A stretch of DNA of 54,982 bases from a virus (Duplodnaviria; Caudoviricetes), in the IMG/VR virus record IMGVR_UViG_3300030329_003381, positions 1 through 54,982 of that record; one strand, given 5' to 3'. Position numbers and translations under genes: made by a program. Of this stretch, positions 2,578-54,456 are shown piece after piece; the stretch's first letter is position 1; the number at the start of each line of letters is the position of its first letter. The notes under the pieces are model-generated. The model ran no database searches and was not told the origin of the DNA. It worked only from the letters and a program-made list of their open reading frames with translations.

Positions 2578-4103
2578 AGTCCGGAATAATTTCTACTTGT
2601 GACCCAGCTGATTGGACTGATCTACCACAAAATAAAAAAATGAGTATATTACTTCAAGCATCTGAAGACCCTGTTTTCTTTTGGACACATCCTTCATTAG
2701 GTAATACAAAACCATGGGACGCACAAACTAAAATGTTAAAGGATTTTTATTCTAAAGATGAGAAAGGTAAAAGAAACTATTCTGAGTTGATTTTTGTATC
2801 AGGAATGCGGGGTGGTAAAACTACTTTAGCTGCTATGATTAGTTTGTATGAAGTATTTAAATTATTAATTCTAGATGACCCAGCTAAACATTACAAGCTT
2901 GGTCCAGGTAGTGAGATTCAATGTATTAATGTAGCTCCTTCAGAGCCTCAAGCATTAGATACAGTATTTAAGAGAAGTAAAGAACTTGTAGCACATAGTC
3001 CTTTTTTTATGGCTAGAGAATATGAACTAGTTTATAATGCAATTAAATTCCCAGATAAAAATATTACAATTAAAGCTTTAGGTTCTAACTCCGGTTCTGG
3101 TGTAGGAAGAACAGTAAAGTGTTTTATTGCAGATGAGGTTAGTAGTTTCTTAGATAATCAAAATAAAAGATCTGCCCAAGAAGTATATTCTAGATTATCA
3201 AAATCAACTGCAACTTTTAAACCATGGAATGAAAATATTAGGGTAGCTATCTCTTCCCCTCTCTATGACGGGGACTTTATCACAAGTATGCATAAAAGGG
3301 CAAAAGAAGAAAAATGGGATTGGGCTATGATAATTTGGGAACCGACTTGGAATCTTAATCCTAATTTAACTAAAGATGTGTTAGAGGAAGAGAGAAAGAA
3401 AGATCCAATTTCTTTTGATAGAGATTTCGGTGCAACTCCTGGTGTTGAAGTTGAAAACTTCTTTTCTAGTGAATTAATCAAAAGAATTAAAATGTCTCAG
3501 TTAAGAAACCATAATTTATTAGAAGACTTGGAACATCTCGAAGCTAAAAATGATGCTGTATATTATATTGTAGGAACAGACCCTGCAATTAAAAATGACT
3601 CTTTTGGTTTAGCTTTGGGTCATGTAACAACTAGTGGTGATATAATTATTGATGGTTCATTATCCTTTTCAGCTGATAGAGGAGAAGAAATAAAATCAGA
3701 TGATATTAAAGAAATACTTGTTCCTTTATTTGAACAATTACCAGTACAGTATTATGTATTTGATGCATACTTACACGGTGAATTAAAAGACTTGGCAGAA
3801 ACATATGGTATTACTACTTTCCAACATTATCTTAATATTGAAGATTGGATTAAAACACGAGATGCACTAGATAAAGGAACTGCTCAATTGCCCTTAGATG
3901 AACAATTAACTAAAGAATTACAATATCTACAACTGATTAAAGCAAAGCAAGTAGATCACCCTAGAAAGTTTCCTGACGGTTCTCAAGGGGGAAAAGACGT
4001 TGCTGATGCTTGCTGCCAGATTATATCGCTGGTTAAGAGGACAGAGGATCTCCAATCAAACAAATACTCTAAAGTCCCTAGTTTTATCGTGCAAACATTT
4101 TAG
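2574..4103 (+). CDS. terL: terminase large subunit
   Basis: Walker A SGMRGGKTT, Walker B CFIADEV, motif III ISSP, nuclease GTDPA and KDVADA. Confidence 0.92.
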   Translation: MKSGIISTCDPADWTDLPQNKKMSILLQASEDPVFFWTHPSLGNTKPWDAQTKMLKDFYSKDEKGKRNYSELIFVSGMRGGKTTLAAMISLYEVFKLLILDDPAKHYKLGPGSEIQCINVAPSEPQALDTVFKRSKELVAHSPFFMAREYELVYNAIKFPDKNITIKALGSNSGSGVGRTVKCFIADEVSSFLDNQNKRSAQEVYSRLSKSTATFKPWNENIRVAISSPLYDGDFITSMHKRAKEEKWDWAMIIWEPTWNLNPNLTKDVLEEERKKDPISFDRDFGATPGVEVENFFSSELIKRIKMSQLRNHNLLEDLEHLEAKNDAVYYIVGTDPAIKNDSFGLALGHVTTSGDIIIDGSLSFSADRGEEIKSDDIKEILVPLFEQLPVQYYVFDAYLHGELKDLAETYGITTFQHYLNIEDWIKTRDALDKGTAQLPLDEQLTKELQYLQLIKAKQVDHPRKFPDGSQGGKDVADACCQIISLVKRTEDLQSNKYSKVPSFIVQTF

Positions 4104-40738: not shown

Positions 40739-41031
40739 CTTAAGTCTGAAGGAACAAATTCTTCGCCAAGCTTCTGCACTGCTGCAGCGACAGCAAATGC
40801 CATCTCGATATCAAAAGCAACACTCTTACCATTCTTTGTAAGAGATAGACATCGCTTTGGATTATCTTTATCTGCGTTCTCACCATCGTATACGATACGA
40901 CTTACGTGCATGATTGCTTTTTGTGGCGTTATAAGATCTATGTGTTCTTCCTCAGACCAATGATTTTCTTTCACTGGTGCTGCGAATTTTTCGATTGTTT
41001 TGTCTTTTAAATCCATCATTCTAATATTCAC
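40735..41031 (-). CDS. hypothetical protein
   Basis: 98-aa coupled ORF. Confidence 0.5.
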   Translation of the reverse strand: MNIRMMDLKDKTIEKFAAPVKENHWSEEEHIDLITPQKAIMHVSRIVYDGENADKDNPKRCLSLTKNGKSVAFDIEMAFAVAAAVQKLGEEFVPSDLR

Positions 41032-41308
41032 CTGTCATTGCTTTACCAATACAGTCGTCGCAACAAGGTATTCCCTTGATTAAATTATCTGCAGTCATAC
41101 TACAAAATTCACAATTCTTTAATTTCTTTATTGAGGCCTCAATATATCTATGAGTCTTACTTTCATAAACTAACTCTCCATTTATTTTTTTCTCACCGCA
41201 TTCCTTACAAAACGCATTGAAAGATGTTCCCCAATAATCCTCCCCTATTTTAATTACTTTAGCACATGCAGTGCATACGTGTTCTTTCTTACCTGTTAAC
41301 ATTCTCAA
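41021..41308 (-). CDS. double Zn-finger protein
   Basis: CTAC..CKEC; CEFC..CDDC. Confidence 0.6.
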   Translation of the reverse strand: MRMLTGKKEHVCTACAKVIKIGEDYWGTSFNAFCKECGEKKINGELVYESKTHRYIEASIKKLKNCEFCSMTADNLIKGIPCCDDCIGKAMTGEY

Positions 41309-41529
41309 TCTACTTCACCTCTATTTGCTAATCGGGCCTCACACCATCTTAATGCAAACCAATCTGCAAAGTCTTGTACTGCTTGCATATCCGCTAATGG
41401 TTTCTGGTTTCCATTTTCTTCTTCATAATCAGTTACTATCTCATCCATAGCAGTAACTGCAGCCATTTTTGGTCCATTATCTTCTACGGTCTTTACAGAT
41501 ATACCCATTTCTACTATCCAATCTATCAT
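41305..41529 (-). CDS. hypothetical protein
   Basis: 74-aa coupled ORF. Confidence 0.5.
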   Translation of the reverse strand: MIDWIVEMGISVKTVEDNGPKMAAVTAMDEIVTDYEEENGNQKPLADMQAVQDFADWFALRWCEARLANRGEVD

Positions 41530-41599
41530 TCTAATGGTTCCTCTCCTTTTGTGTATCCTTTTTTCTTAAGCCAATTTTCATACCAAGGATGGTGTTTTT

Positions 41600-41938
41600 T
41601 CATTCTAGCTTACTCTCTATTAAATTCCTACAGTCTAAACATCGTTTCGATAATTCATTATAGTTCTCATCAACATTTACTTTGCCTTTTTCAAATTTTT
41701 CAAAGTCAGGAAGAGGCGATTGATGTCTCAAGCCACGTTTAAGCATTTCATTAACAATTGCTTTGTGGCGCAAATTAATATTATGTACTTCAACTAGCCC
41801 ATTTTTAGCATAGCCTGTTAAAGTTACTGAAGGATGAGGCGATCGTTTAATAGTCCCTACAAACATATGCAATTCAACATGCTCTCCTAAAAGATGTTGT
41901 TGACACATATATTCTGGATCAACCATCCACATTCTCAT
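41600..41938 (-). CDS. pyrimidine-dimer DNA glycosylase (T4 endonuclease V-like)
   Basis: MRMWMVDP..MCQQHLLGEHVELH..RH..IVNEMLKRG..HQSPL. Confidence 0.85.
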   Translation of the reverse strand: MRMWMVDPEYMCQQHLLGEHVELHMFVGTIKRSPHPSVTLTGYAKNGLVEVHNINLRHKAIVNEMLKRGLRHQSPLPDFEKFEKGKVNVDENYNELSKRCLDCRNLIESKLE

Positions 41939-42026
41939 TTAACTAAAACCTCCAAACTAAAACCATAAATAAATATATATCTCATTTCTCTTACACAATG
42001 CTCACATTCACACAAACCTCGATACC

Positions 42027-42347
42027 TCATTCTTCATTCTCCGGATTATTTAAATCAACAAACTTTGGTACATAATCTATTATAATAGCATCATCAGGCA
42101 ATGTATCTTCTCTTACCTCTTTTTCTTTCTTCTCTGGCTTCCATATCTTCATCCCATATTTCTCACTAACTTTCTTAGCTGCCCACCACTTTCGAACTTT
42201 CGGTCGTGTCTTATAAGGTAACTTTGTAATAATAACTTCGTGCCCTTCATCACTGTGTTGATTTAAAGTCTTATCATCGCAATTAACTCCACATCTGATG
42301 CACCTACCGTAGTACTTCTCTGCTTTGTCATCTAGAATTTTTCCCAT
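42027..42347 (-). CDS. hypothetical Zn-binding protein
   Basis: CIRC..H...H; leaderless start just after a TATA promoter. Confidence 0.55.
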   Translation of the reverse strand: MGKILDDKAEKYYGRCIRCGVNCDDKTLNQHSDEGHEVIITKLPYKTRPKVRKWWAAKKVSEKYGMKIWKPEKKEKEVREDTLPDDAIIIDYVPKFVDLNNPENEE

Positions 42348-42399
42348 AATATATATATAAAGGCGTTTATATATAACTATTTTGGCTTTTTGTGGCGTT
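42348..42399 (-). promoter_or_regulatory. repeated viral promoter, copy 1
   Basis: - strand AACGCC..GCCAA..TTATATATAAACGCC.TTATATATATATT-ATG. Confidence 0.7.
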
Positions 42400-42538
42400 G
42401 GCTCTTATGTCTCAGGTTTGAAACTTTCCATACATTTGGCACATTCTTGCCATTCCCAATCTTTAGGCATTAAATCTCTACAATGCTTACAGACAGGATA
42501 TTCATGTTCTTCATTTGCATTTGTTACATTCATAATCA

Positions 42539-42880
42539 TAAAAGGTCTCAGCGGGAATTCCTCCTACCCTAACCGGACCGAGACCTGTTACTTCATCGAG
42601 GTATCAACGTGCAGTGCTTACAGTGGGCCTTTCAACTCGTGTGAGTCGAGGTACGCTTGTACTAGATATCGTGCAGGGACGTGATGAAGCCTGCTATCGT
42701 ATTAATCCGATAACTATAAAGAGAAAAGACCCATTATGATCAATAATGGGCCTGTTATAGATACTTATTAACTACGTGAGGAGAGATGTGTCGCCAGGGA
42801 CCCGAAGGTGTAGGAGGGACATGTGCACTCGTGAGAAGTTAAGTACCTACCTGTTATACCGTATACGTGATAACTGTAAA
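42539..42880 (-). ncRNA. candidate tandem structured RNAs (two homologous three-hairpin units)
   Basis: Six hairpins; G-U pairs form only on the - strand; cUUCGg loop; four UA(A/G)CAGG motifs; no convincing ORF. Confidence 0.55.
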
Positions 42881-42888
42881 AAAAAAAG
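42878..42888 (-). terminator. oligo-T terminator
   Basis: A10 on the + strand (T10 on the - strand) downstream of 42974-43279. Confidence 0.55.
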
Positions 42889-42973
42889 AGGTCCAAAGAG
42901 TTTGCACCGGGCGTCAAGAGTTACTGGAACTCCCTATGAATGACGTTATACAAGACCAAATTGAGTTGCCCGT

Positions 42974-43279
42974 TTATGCGTCTTTGGATTTCTTCTTTGT
43001 TGTTTTTGGGACTGACCATCTATAGTAGGTTTTAGTGTCTCTTCTACCTTGTTCGATCTTGCCCTCGCTCATCAGCTTATTCAAGACATTTCTTGTATAA
43101 ACCTCGCTCACATGAGACTCTGAAGATATGGTCTTAACAGAGGCCCATAATTGTGGACTTTCGGCTGACAAGGTTTGTAAGCATTTGATCACTCGTTCTT
43201 TCGATGATCCTACTGAGATGCTATCAAAGTCCTCGATTGACCTTGCTTCCACAAGGTCTCGATTAATCTTTTCTTCCAT
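42974..43279 (-). CDS. winged-helix protein
   Basis: SVKTIS..YTRNVLNKLMSEGKIEQ..TKTYYRW. Confidence 0.75.
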   Translation of the reverse strand: MEEKINRDLVEARSIEDFDSISVGSSKERVIKCLQTLSAESPQLWASVKTISSESHVSEVYTRNVLNKLMSEGKIEQGRRDTKTYYRWSVPKTTKKKSKDA

Positions 43280-43333
43280 ACGATATATATATCGTGGCGT
43301 TTAAATATAAAGTTATTGGCTTTATTTCGCGTT
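43280..43333 (-). promoter_or_regulatory. repeated viral promoter, copy 2
   Basis: AACGCG..GCCAA..TTTATATTTAAACGCC, then the 16-bp palindrome ACGATATATATATCGT abutting the ATG. Confidence 0.7.
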
Positions 43334-43532
43334 AGGACGTTTGTTGTATAAGCTGTGGTGCATCCATAACATACTCTTTACCACATCTACCACATACAAC
43401 TTGTGCATTGTATTTAGGGAAGTGGTTAGGTGTATTACAATGATCGCAAACTTGCTTCCATTTTACTGTCCACCCTTCTCTCTCTAGCACAACGGACTTT
43501 ATAATCATCTCGTTGATTTTTTTGCTACTCAT
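43332..43532 (-). CDS. Zn-ribbon protein
   Basis: CDHC...CGRCG. Confidence 0.6.
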   Translation of the reverse strand: MSSKKINEMIIKSVVLEREGWTVKWKQVCDHCNTPNHFPKYNAQVVCGRCGKEYVMDAPQLIQQTS

Positions 43533-43995
43533 ACTTTACTCCGTTCACTGAAACTGAAACTGGTTTTTGTAGTTTCAGAAGATCATCTATACTCACTTCA
43601 TCACCACGACCAATTCTTGTAATAATTTGTGTATACTTGACATCTAGTTTGTCTAGATCATCTGTGGCATACCATAACCACAATTGCTTGTTGATTGCTA
43701 ATACACCTGCATACTTGTTTGGAAATTCTTTCTTCGCTGCTTTGTATTTACGAGGTAATGAATTACCCATAGTTTGTAAATTGATCATTGCGAACTCTAA
43801 TTTCATAAAGCCAATATCGAATTCAGTGTATCTAATTATCTCATCAACTTTTTTGTCCATTCCACAAGTTAAACCTCCGCTTACCTTTACTACTGGCAGG
43901 ACGTGTTCTAAGTCTTGTCCCACAACACGGACAAAATGCTCCTTCCCATAAGATAAATATCCCACAGGAACTACATCTTTTTCTTCCGTCACCAT
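43525..43995 (-). CDS. hypothetical protein
   Basis: 156-aa ORF; overlaps 43844-44068 in another frame, so its start is uncertain. Confidence 0.45.
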   Translation of the reverse strand: MVTEEKDVVPVGYLSYGKEHFVRVVGQDLEHVLPVVKVSGGLTCGMDKKVDEIIRYTEFDIGFMKLEFAMINLQTMGNSLPRKYKAAKKEFPNKYAGVLAINKQLWLWYATDDLDKLDVKYTQIITRIGRGDEVSIDDLLKLQKPVSVSVNGVKYE

Positions 43996-44068
43996 AGTTG
44001 AAGTCTCCCTTGTATCGTTGGTATGATTTGTGTTTTAAACAAATCCCATTGCATGTTTGTACTTTCAT
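43844..44068 (-). CDS. small Cys-rich Zn protein resembling a Nitrososphaerota family
   Basis: CNGIC..Y..G.KRCSSC.IFI.WEG..CPCCG.RLRTRP. Confidence 0.7.
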   Translation of the reverse strand: MKVQTCNGICLKHKSYQRYKGDFNYGDGRKRCSSCGIFILWEGAFCPCCGTRLRTRPASSKGKRRFNLWNGQKS

Positions 44069-44176
44069 TTTCTTTTATGTGTTTCCTTGACATGATTTAT
44101 AACCTCTTTAAAGTTCTTAAAGTCTCCTTTACCACAATGTATACAATGTGTAATGTCATAGGGAGGCATTCGTCAA

Positions 44177-44455
44177 TTACGATTTGGTGAATTCCTTTAA
44201 TGACCTTATAGGGCGACCACTTACAGAGGTCTTATTAACATATAATGAACGGTGTTTACCGCGAGGTTTCGAACGTAACCTTCTATGACAACATATGCAA
44301 TAGAAGGTTTTCCAAGTATCTTTAGGATCAAACCATTTACTGCATCCTTTGCAATACCAAAGTCTCTCATAGATTCTCTGATACCCATTATGTTTACCTG
44401 GCACACGGTCAGCACGCTGTGCATAACGCGCACACACGCCATGACATAGATACAA
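44177..44455 (-). CDS. paralog of 43844-44068
   Basis: CHGVC..Y..YCKGC..CICC..RLRSKPR. Confidence 0.65.
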   Translation of the reverse strand: MYLCHGVCARYAQRADRVPGKHNGYQRIYERLWYCKGCSKWFDPKDTWKTFYCICCHRRLRSKPRGKHRSLYVNKTSVSGRPIRSLKEFTKS

Positions 44456-44456
44456 G

Positions 44457-44645
44457 TTAGTTCTTAAACTCCTTGTACGGATGTGTACTCTTCTTTTGCA
44501 ATTCTATTTGTTCGTCGTGGTGTGCTCTACAAAAGTTCACTTTAGCTTTAACATCTTCAAAGATCCCTTTCTCTTTTTCCACTCGAACTATTGCTTCAAC
44601 TACTATGTCTGTAGGTGCTTCACAACCTACTGCGTCACAGGTCAA
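44457..44645 (-). CDS. small Zn-finger protein
   Basis: CDAVGC...FCRAH. Confidence 0.55.
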   Translation of the reverse strand: MTCDAVGCEAPTDIVVEAIVRVEKEKGIFEDVKAKVNFCRAHHDEQIELQKKSTHPYKEFKN

Positions 44646-49493: not shown

Positions 49494-49922
49494 TCATTCT
49501 TCTATGTTCTCCAATTGTTTCATAATATATTCTTTGTCCAGCATTGGTATATCATTCTCTATACAACTCTTCACTGCCATTATATGTTTGCAATCGCCAT
49601 CATTACCTCGATACTGAAAATCATAACAAGAACATTGCCATTTCTCATCTGTCATTCTCACATCGTAATAAGTTTTAGAACTTTCCCCATAGACTTTAAA
49701 GATATTAATCAGTTTGCCTTCTGTGTAAATGATTGGAACTGGCATTTCATTATAAGTTTTTCCTGCTGCTTCTTTGAAATGCTTAGTATGTTTCTTAACT
49801 ATCTTCTCTGCTTTGTGTTGACGACTTGAACCTCTAACTTTAGAACTAACACTATCAGCTGGCAACTCTTCTACACCCATATTCTCAAACATTCTAACAT
49901 ACTTACTTGTACTTTTTTCCAT
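49494..49922 (-). CDS. SWIM Zn-finger protein
   Basis: WQCSCYDF..R....CKHI (CxC..CxH). Confidence 0.85.
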   Translation of the reverse strand: MEKSTSKYVRMFENMGVEELPADSVSSKVRGSSRQHKAEKIVKKHTKHFKEAAGKTYNEMPVPIIYTEGKLINIFKVYGESSKTYYDVRMTDEKWQCSCYDFQYRGNDGDCKHIMAVKSCIENDIPMLDKEYIMKQLENIEE

Positions 49923-50109
49923 CCTGTCTCCACCTTTCTAAACTTTCTGAACCAAAATTAGCTATATCTCCCGTCACACCTAATAGTAATACTACGACAG
50001 ACATGCCTAACAAAAATCCTCCTATGACCCAATTTACAAACAAAAGTACAATCCCTGCTACGAATAAGACTATCGGTCCAATTGCTAATACGTAGTTTCT
50101 CATGCTCAT
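49903..50109 (-). CDS. two-TM membrane protein
   Basis: Two hydrophobic helices; GGTGA upstream. Confidence 0.65.
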   Translation of the reverse strand: MSMRNYVLAIGPIVLFVAGIVLLFVNWVIGGFLLGMSVVVLLLGVTGDIANFGSESLERWRQDGKKYK

Positions 50110-50545: not shown

Positions 50546-50574
50546 TTTCGCTCTAATATAATTACCACTTTATA

Positions 50575-50765
50575 ATATATAAACTTAATTCCCCAAAACA
50601 CCTTTGGTGAAGGGGGGGAACATAATTAAGAACTGTTAAAGAACAACTCTATCTCTCTCTCTCTATCTCACACCCCGTACGTACACTGTTCGCGCAGCGG
50701 CTAGTTTTGGAACTTAAAAGAACAGCGCCATGTAATGGTCCAGTACGGTAACTTCAAAAGAACAC
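50575..50765. repeat. intergenic module with TATA, G7 string and AACT..AAAGAACA repeats
   Basis: 50575-50645 aligns with 52893-52962; 50705-50738 aligns with 52942-52974 and 54935-54968. Confidence 0.6.
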
Positions 50766-54280: not shown

Positions 54281-54456
54281 TAATATATATATAACTTAGT
54301 TAAATATAAAGCTTGATTCCGAACATACCAATCGAGTCAGACTAAGCCAAACAAAAGGCGAACAAGGAGCCAAGTGCGGCTTTGCTCTACGCTCGCTAAG
54401 GGTTGTTTTGTTTGAACAAATGATTTATATATCACAAAAATATATATATATTAAGA
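54281..54456. promoter_or_regulatory. divergent promoter region (strand switch)
   Basis: - strand TTTATATTT..TTATATATATATTA-ATG; + strand TTTATATA..ATATATATATATT..ATG. Confidence 0.65.

Follow-up and report, generated by a model that had tools for sequence, protein, structure and literature searches.

Organization of the two units

The 54,982-bp linear IMG/VR virus record IMGVR_UViG_3300030329_003381 (completeness estimate 74%), which was analyzed over its whole length and is referred to here as the window, contains at positions 42540-42880 a stretch poor in open reading frames (ORFs), located between a gene for a DNA-binding regulator and a gene for a small zinc-ribbon protein. What does this stretch encode? 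A first-pass annotation made from the letters alone had proposed that its minus strand carries a tandem pair of homologous three-hairpin units, possibly an undescribed viral array of non-coding RNAs (ncRNAs). We find that the stretch is present as RNA in the environment, and we favor, at about even chances, the reading that it consists of two paralogous minus-strand genes for small structured ncRNAs of ~155 and 175 nt that act in trans.

The two units share one layout on the minus strand. In order, each contains the motif UUUAYA, a 22-nt hairpin that opens with GUUAUC (hp1), an AG linker, a large domain (hp2), the motif UAACA, a terminator-like hairpin (hp3) and a U-tract. According to minimum free energy (MFE) folds, the closing stem of the large domain has 8-14 bp with a G-U as its first pair, and the 3′ hairpin has 10-11 bp. 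This layout is present in 5/5 units across three genomes, namely the window and the related loci L025 and L026.

Unit A (42718..42874, ~155 nt) has an ortholog in L025, folds with a z-score of about -3 and is represented in the RNA contigs of runs X9 and X12. It is preceded by UUUACA (42875..42880), which is the first half of the 12-mer UUUAYAGUUAUC and is identical in L025. The 5′ hairpin, A hp1 (42853..42874), pairs GUUAU with AUAAC, has an inner CG/CG and ends in a UAUA loop. The large central domain, A hp2 (42757..42850), is closed by an 11-bp stem (42840-42850 with 42757-42767) that continues past a 3-nt bulge with three more pairs; its interior is variable, and a cUUCGg tetraloop caps the apex at 42802-42807. 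The 11-bp terminator-like hairpin, A hp3 (42727..42753), is followed by a U-rich tract at 42718-42726, and a gap of 4 nt lies between this tract and the start of unit B.

Unit B (42540..42714, ~175 nt) has orthologs in both L025 and L026, is represented in the RNA contigs of X9, X11 and X12 and is preceded by UUUAUA at 42715-42720. Its 22-nt 5′ hairpin, B hp1 (42693..42714), has a 7-bp stem with one U-G pair. The large domain, B hp2 (42590..42690), is closed by the strands GCUUCAUC and GAUGAAGU and contains a conserved 5′ part, CACGUCCCUGCACGAUA. B hp3 (42543..42586) is formed by the strands AGGUCUCGG and CUGAGACCU and is followed by UUU(U) at 42540-42543, a U-tract that leads directly into the start of a 44-aa ORF. 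Conserved segments of the units include CACGUCCCUGCACGAUA and CUUCGGGUCCCU; in addition, UAACA stands directly 3′ of hp2 in all five units.

Most structural details of the first-pass annotation were reproduced. All six of its stems were recovered at their coordinates, the tetraloop is present, and the G-U pairs that it had reported in five stems were found in 5/6, with two mismatches instead in A hp1. The heptamer GUCCCUG, described as common to the large hairpins, had to be shortened to GUCCCU, which is present in 5/5 units. An 8-nt complement (42560-67/42810-17) that might link the two units is perfect in the window, but only 4/8 of its pairs are left in L025, so that a role in joining the units is not supported.

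Presence of the units in RNA libraries

Twenty public sequencing runs hold at least part of the stretch, including four RNA libraries. We compared the region 41000-44500 in the RNA runs X9, X11 and X12 (one study, at most three samples) and in the DNA run X6, which derives from the same sample as X9. RNA contigs covered the units in 3/3 runs (X9, 42561-42874; X11, 42584-42810; X12, 42685-42872), and separate RNA contigs over the upstream genes began at 42996, 42992 and 43035, while the DNA contig of X6 was continuous across 42574-43141. Over the whole 3.5 kb, the RNA cover was patchy, whereas the DNA cover was nearly continuous at a depth of 2-5, making carry-over of DNA into the RNA libraries unlikely. 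From these results we conclude only that RNA with both units, the 5′ hairpin of unit A included, occurs in the environment.

In two of the RNA runs, the contig stops no more than 2 nt from G42874, which forms the foot of A hp1. Gaps between RNA contigs (in X9 at 42875-42991, and also downstream of 42561) may correspond to true ends of transcripts, even if a gap alone proves nothing. Over the units, the contigs had depths of 43.7, 147.9 and 10.5, compared with 23, 45.8 and 23.8 over the upstream genes; these values allow no ranking of expression.

Motif clustering and folding energy

Perfect copies of the 12-mer TTTAYAGTTATC occur only twice in the window, at the starts of the two units; with up to two mismatches allowed, there are 27 matches vs 21.3 expected. 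The heptamer TAACAGG occurs in 12 copies vs 6.95 expected, a number reached by 5/100 shuffled sequences, and three of the 12 copies fall within 273 nt at the units, all on the minus strand.

MFE folds of both units recovered the three-hairpin layout. Compared with dinucleotide shuffles, unit A was unusually stable (z -2.99, with 2/200 shuffles as good; -3.22 in a second fold). The whole 342 nt gave z -1.12 on the minus strand (12/100 shuffles as good) and -0.39 on the plus strand (34/100). The proposed structure was thus distinguishable from shuffled sequence for unit A, but not for unit B or for the whole interval. Since only unit A is significant, folding energy is insufficient as evidence by the criterion that the first-pass annotation itself had set, and the case rests on the repeated layout, the clustering of the motifs and the comparative data. 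Among the 12 window gaps scanned, the minus strand showed no further intergenic stretch with conspicuous structure.

Stem changes in relatives

The relatives were retrieved with an alignment of the regulator and five of its relatives, which yielded one viral and six metagenomic loci (seven in all). L025, whose regulator has 85% amino acid identity to that of the window, carries both units downstream of the regulator homolog. L026 (86%) carries a B-type unit only, with a different 3′ hairpin.

Between the window and L025, unit A differs at 20 of 166 columns, 14 of which lie in the interior of hp2 (columns 50-107). The remaining changes include several in the stems. In the closing stem of hp2, one G-U pair is replaced by A-U and one A-U pair by G-U; hp3 has one compensatory change from U-A to C-G and one disrupted pair (a C-A mismatch); and in hp1 an A-G mismatch becomes a U-G pair. 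The tally for unit A is therefore one double change, two wobble transitions, one mismatch turned into U-G and one disruption. Over its 33 named pairs, 97% of cells are paired, compared to 23-49% when the partners are slid by 1-3 columns.

In unit B, an A to G change turns a U-A pair of hp1 into U-G in both L025 and L026. The closing stem of hp2 is invariant, except that in L025 an inserted 5′ A and an inserted 3′ U add one A-U pair. In hp3, L025 shows a double change from G-C to A-U together with one U-C mismatch, and L026 has an unrelated hairpin and U-tract at this position. For the 25 named pairs of unit B, 94.7% of cells are paired vs 34-47% with partners slid by 1-3 columns.

Because each G-U pair corresponds to a C-A mismatch on the plus strand, changes of the wobble type are tolerated only if it is the minus strand that folds. 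Together with the compensatory changes, they support the earlier proposal that selection acts on a single-stranded minus-strand molecule.

Conserved scaffold and divergent interior

The window and L025 are 94% identical over a 4.2-kb alignment. In 50-nt bins, identity falls to 64% and 75% in the interior of unit B and to 81% in the interior of unit A, with most other bins at 88-100%. The middle 55-65 nt of B hp2 are replaced or unalignable between the window and L025 or L026. In contrast, the first 61 nt of unit B match L026 at 95% identity. This segment comprises the lead-in U-tract with UUUAUA, hp1, the 5′ strand of the hp2 stem and the initial bases of CACGUCCCUGCACGAUA. The flanking genes are only 68-77% identical to those of L026, and the remainder of the unit gave no blastn alignment to L026. 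An identity above that of the neighboring genes implies a stronger constraint on the scaffold than on the neighboring proteins, with the core under much weaker or diversifying constraint. A conserved scaffold around a variable interior, which the first-pass annotation had seen from the two units of the window, thus also holds between genomes.

On a larger scale, the regulator gene (82-94% identity in 50-nt bins) and the units form a local hotspot of divergence from L025, with mostly 94-100% identity elsewhere. The regulator gene and the RNA units may evolve as one module.

Distribution of the units

We built a covariance model from the three B units. The model recovered these three and unit A of the window (15.6 bits, E 0.053); it did not list unit A of L025, and it found no further copies in the other five loci or the rest of the window (83 kb of sequence). 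As the model reaches unit A of the window only at E = 0.053, A and B are old paralogs with little in common beyond the scaffold.

Pattern searches for the unit-start motif were carried out in larger collections. The pattern TTTAYAGTTATC-N4-16-RATARCAGG, which fits only unit B of the window, had three matches in viral contigs, all unrelated. The pattern GTTATC..ATARCAGG..TAACAGG had 19 matches in viral contigs, which were coding or chance-like, none of them with the layout. The pattern TTTAYAGTTATC-N11-RTARCAG, which fits all five units, had one viral match, in the unrelated locus L003, and 15 matches scattered in unrelated bacterial genomes, which by our own estimate is approximately the number expected by chance. 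No match to the units was found by blastn in 50,697 phage records. Blanks in these motif and blastn scans of collections do not amount to absence. Searches for close relatives with the 101-aa, 106-aa and DNA polymerase (PolB) proteins in viral contigs, and with the 106-aa alignment in metagenome contigs, returned nothing.

At the position of the units, L027 and L028 have a plain hairpin and T-run followed by a promoter. Another of the loci, L024 (regulator identity 44%), contains an unrelated structured stretch of ~150 nt at 3250-3400 (z -3.38, 0/200 shuffles as good). This stretch has a 13-bp closing stem and lies between a winged-helix gene and a zinc-finger gene; it matched nothing in Rfam and does not resemble the units. 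Nor did the complete 74-kb virus from which L024 derives match the units at the DNA level.

Comparison with known RNA families

A search with Rfam 15 (4227 models) gave no match at the gathering threshold over the whole window. At E <= 10, the region 42300-43100 had four weak matches, none of which was inside 42540-42880, and ARAGORN predicted no tRNA or tmRNA genes in the window. The units thus match no RNA family of this catalog. Literature listings and abstracts contained no description of such RNAs; a 229-nt ncRNA has been reported from marine group II archaea (PMC5069720).

The formats of several RNA classes were also compared. For C/D box small RNAs (sRNAs), the box RUGAUGA is present in 0/5 units and CUGA in 1/5, where it lies within a stem. 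A CRISPR array would have repeats of ~25-37 nt and spacers of ~30-40 nt, and a solitary repeat of the RNA anti-CRISPR type would copy the repeat of a host array, whereas the elements repeated here, a 12-mer and a 7-mer, recur at distances of 61-160 nt, and a Pfam scan of 96 ORFs of the window, for which 25 of 31 families are listed, contained no cas gene. The families listed likewise include no TnpB, IscB or IS110 family, in disagreement with an omega or bridge RNA, no reverse transcriptase, in disagreement with a retron msr-msd, and no L7Ae, Sm-like or transposase family. A ToxI-like RNA of a type III toxin-antitoxin system would consist of tandem repeats of ~34-50 nt immediately preceding the gene for an endoribonuclease toxin; the units have 155-175 nt, occur in two copies and are followed by a gene for a 44-aa zinc ribbon. 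The arrangement of a putative intrinsic terminator, a hairpin with a U-rich tract right behind it, is present: A hp3 was flagged on the minus strand by the scan, and B hp3 and the hp3 of the orthologs are built alike in the folds. We read the units as a new family of virus-encoded small structured RNAs, narrowly distributed so far.

Proposed function

In the model that we favor, transcription would enter from the promoter of the upstream regulator gene, and the U-tracts and hairpins would end or punctuate the transcript. Cleavage of the RNA, or trimming in the 5′ to 3′ direction, would then set its new 5′ end at the foot of hp1. With hp1 and hp3 shielding the 5′ and 3′ ends, two stable RNAs would accumulate, and their variable central domain would act in trans in conflicts between virus and host or between viruses, where it would determine specificity as a decoy or by base pairing. 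The lack of a virus-type promoter before either unit suggests cutting or trimming to the foot of hp1 and makes release of the units from a longer transcript plausible. The combination of a conserved scaffold and a hypervariable core suggests the core as the working part, in trans. This trans-acting function is the weakest step of the explanation.

Several results weigh against two trans-acting RNA genes. With regard to function, the window contains five perfect complements of at least 11 nt to the units outside of them, which is approximately the number expected by chance; duplexes with 96 translation-start regions were energetically no more favorable than those of shuffled queries; and no RNA-binding partner appears among the families listed for the 96 ORFs, just as the first-pass annotation had seen no obvious partner protein. 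No virus-type promoter was found before either unit, and the units may thus not be independent genes. With regard to structure, the energy of unit B is unremarkable (z -1.04, 29/200 shuffles as good), and neither unit B nor the orthologs of the units surpass shuffled sequence in folding energy (z -0.2 to -1.4). Among the available sequences, most stem pairs are invariant, the shuffle control for unit A (250/500), with two sequences only, carries no information, and most of the double changes in unit B stem from the replaced, unaligned hp3 of L026. The comparison as a whole rests on five unit sequences from three closely related genomes, and the five loci with more distant regulators (L024 and L027-L030, 39-49% amino acid identity) have no units. 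Finally, the stretch forms contigs of its own in all three RNA runs, but contigs give no strand, ends or level, and all RNA runs belong to one study.

An extension of this model, which we regard as speculative and rather improbable, is that the units are exchangeable specificity cassettes, in which the scaffold is fixed and the core is under diversifying selection and swapped between strains. The core would serve as a decoy or guide against a host defense or a rival virus and, with the co-diverging winged-helix regulator, would make up an RNA-based immunity or counter-defense module.

Alternative explanations

The main rival to trans-acting RNAs, unlikely in our judgment but to be taken more seriously than any other, is a cis-acting transcription cassette. 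Under this explanation, tandem terminators or attenuators, or a leader, between the regulator and zinc-ribbon genes would set the level of read-through, and the short RNAs would be by-products without function. A hairpin and U-tract closes each unit; the 44-aa ORF begins 1-7 nt past the U-tract of unit B without a promoter of its own, and the next gene has the TATA motif of the virus. Moreover, the plain hairpin and T-run terminators of L027 and L028, each followed by a promoter, occupy the very position of the units, and L026 has exchanged hp3 for an unrelated hairpin and U-tract, suggesting that hp3 is a generic terminator only. However, a terminator needs neither a conserved 5′ hairpin nor a domain of 95-115 nt with a conserved closing stem, and it would not account for a 61-nt segment conserved at 95% beside genes at 68-77% identity. 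In L026, moreover, unit B and the homolog of the 44-aa ORF are not neighbors. No alternative pairing of the anti-terminator type was seen (by inspection only), and no riboswitch family matched.

It is also conceivable, although very doubtful, that selection acts on DNA, with GTTATC-N10-GATAAC palindromes and CCTGTTA repeats serving as operators for the winged-helix regulator or another protein and transcription being incidental. This would fit the adjoining gene, which encodes an ArsR/MarR-like winged-helix protein, the GTTATC half-site, invariant in 5/5 units with the palindrome spacing fixed at 22 nt, and the location of the regulator gene and the units in one hotspot of divergence from L025. 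Yet the right half-site drifts to GATAGC and GGTAGC, so that the DNA symmetry is lost and the RNA pairing is kept through U-G, and nothing at the level of DNA would explain why the other stems show compensatory changes and a paired insertion. The presence of the units as contigs of their own in RNA libraries and the occurrence of regulator homologs without the motifs also disagree with operators.

We consider it highly improbable that the locus is without function, i.e., a recent local duplication of a non-coding spacer that folds by chance. The narrow distribution in three related genomes, the chance-level results of the pattern scans in viral and prokaryotic genome collections and the weak folding z-scores of 4/5 units would be expected in that case, but the duplication of A and B is old, and the layout with its exact 22-nt hairpin was kept nonetheless. 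A scaffold better conserved than the neighboring coding sequence, stem changes that preserve the structure and the presence of the stretch in RNA libraries also speak against a lack of function.

Least probable of all are archaeal H/ACA-type guide RNAs directing pseudouridylation of host or viral RNA, a resemblance raised in the first-pass annotation that ends at the UAACA after the large hairpin (5/5 units), the 8-11-bp lower stem and the variable, guide-like interior: the hairpin, at 95-115 nt, exceeds the ~60-75 nt of archaeal H/ACA hairpins, inspection of the five sequences revealed no K-turn or K-loop and no tandem sheared G-A opposite a 3-nt bulge (no dedicated K-turn search was made), the H/ACA models of Rfam gave nothing up to E = 10, there is no Cbf5, Nop10, Gar1 or L7Ae in the families listed for the 96 ORFs, and GCA rather than ACA follows the 5′ hairpin of unit B.

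Relation to known systems and significance

The trans-acting RNAs that we favor can be compared with several characterized systems. The C4 RNA of phages P1 and P7 and the CI RNA of P4 (Rfam RF01695) are small RNAs with roles in immunity or regulation that temperate phages release from longer transcripts by cutting. The units resemble them in being virus-encoded and structured, within a size range of ~80-180 nt, and in lying in a regulatory region by a DNA-binding regulator. Likewise, the scaffold is conserved while specificity parts differ between close relatives, and release from a longer transcript is probable. In contrast to C4 and CI RNAs, the units match no Rfam model, have complements in the viral genome only at chance level, are about twice the size and belong to a virus of archaeal type.

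The adenovirus VA I/II and Epstein-Barr virus (EBV) EBER1/2 RNAs are abundant structured RNAs of large DNA viruses, ~160-170 nt in size, from tandem paralogous genes that act as protein decoys. The units are similar in size, in being highly structured and in comprising two tandem paralogous genes; the VA and EBER RNAs, however, have internal Pol III promoters, known protein partners and eukaryotic hosts, none of which applies here. The pRNA of the phi29 type (Rfam RF00044) shares with the units a size of ~170 nt, a tailed virus with a family B polymerase and a possible loop-loop pairing (42560-67/42810-17). The units differ in lacking an Rfam match, in the loss of half of this loop complement in L025 and in a polymerase that groups with archaeal-virus and T4-type enzymes.

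Terminator-ended sRNAs of bacterial style, or those from 3′ untranslated regions (UTRs) or leaders, also have a 3′ hairpin with a U-tract and a 5′-terminal hairpin and stand directly downstream of a coding gene. The units differ from these in a probably archaeal host and in the lack of any seed or target found. In archaea, U-tracts alone terminate transcription, and we know of no established Hfq-type sRNA biology there. With archaeal H/ACA sRNAs the units share the hairpin followed by ACA and the variable interior within a conserved stem; they are oversized, show no K-turn by inspection, match no model and lack ACA after one small hairpin.

To our knowledge, very little is known about ncRNAs of archaeal viruses, and almost nothing about those of uncultivated marine ones. 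The pair of RNAs at this locus is compact, is backed by environmental RNA evidence and combines a defined scaffold with a hypervariable core, and the locus sits in the fastest-diverging part of the early/regulatory gene region. If the core does set specificity against a host or viral factor, the locus would make RNA-based conflict or regulation in archaeal viruses testable; if it is only a terminator or leader cassette, the units would show how such viruses partition transcription. Either way, the units should be annotated as RNA features rather than as an ORF-poor gap.

Neighboring genes, promoters and transcript ends

The gene upstream of the units (42974..43279, minus strand) encodes a 101-aa protein that we assign as a winged-helix DNA-binding regulator from weak Pfam matches and an AlphaFold2 (AF2) model. 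The Pfam matches, to Rrf2, TrmB and DUF7342, are below the cut-off, and the AF2 model (pLDDT 78) resembles repressors of the ArsR/SmtB/MarR type. The protein has 16 relatives at E <= 0.001, and the gene has a TATA-type, leaderless-style promoter of its own at ~43280-43320. No sigma-70 type promoter was found on the minus strand. We also tried TTTAYAG as an archaeal TATA box, with the start of the RNA near CAGG; this was set aside as the main reading because the RNA contigs of two runs reach 42872-42874 and the pairing of hp1 is kept.

Just before unit A, a T10 run (42878..42887, minus strand) is likely the termination signal of the upstream gene. In DNA run X6, the contig has one additional base here, so that the length of this homopolymer varies within the population. 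In addition, an inverted repeat with 21-nt arms (42879-42899/42981-43001, 81% complementary) joins the end of the winged-helix ORF to the T10 run, and it brackets almost exactly the stretch without an RNA contig in the three runs.

Downstream, the 44-aa zinc-ribbon ORF (42405..42539, minus strand) starts 1-7 nt after the U-tract of unit B. A third, degenerate copy of the unit-start motif at 42531-42542 (UUUAUGAUUAUG in the window and UUUAUAAUUAUG in L025) overlaps its start. Since the first ATG of this ORF is absent in L025, the true start is probably at 42533. The 44-aa protein (P0013) clusters at 90% identity with a 436-aa representative, and another 436-aa member of the cluster is named a tRNA methyltransferase; as BLASTP gave no alignment of the 44-aa protein to the representative, a clustering artefact is likely.

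The virus and its gene content

The window encodes tail proteins, a family B DNA polymerase, an ERCC4 nuclease, QueC, radical-SAM enzymes and many small zinc-ribbon proteins. Among annotated viruses, the polymerase is closest to haloarchaeal tailed viruses (26% identity, E 7e-56), and it groups with archaeal-virus and T4-type enzymes; metagenomic relatives have 43-88% identity, one of which carries the source label 'archaea type'.

Several genes have in common an upstream motif in which TTTATATWTAAA is followed after ~8-9 nt by a ATATATATAT run and then directly by ATG. Copies were located on the minus strand at 42348-42385, 43280-43320, 50546-50590 and 54281-54315, and on the plus strand at 54420-54456. 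This motif looks like archaeal TATA promoters with leaderless mRNAs. On the basis of the promoter motif and the affinities of the polymerase, we treat the virus as probably archaeal, that is, as an uncultivated marine tailed virus whose host domain is probably the archaea. A similar copy of the motif precedes the ORF at 49903-50109, whose translation probably begins at an in-frame ATG further upstream.

Among further genes, the window contains an ERCC4-HhH nuclease and a pyrimidine-dimer glycosylase (41600-41938). ORFs including QueC, a radical-SAM/4Fe-4S protein and a phosphoribosyltransferase suggest a 7-deazaguanine modification (preQ0/archaeosine-type) of the viral DNA.

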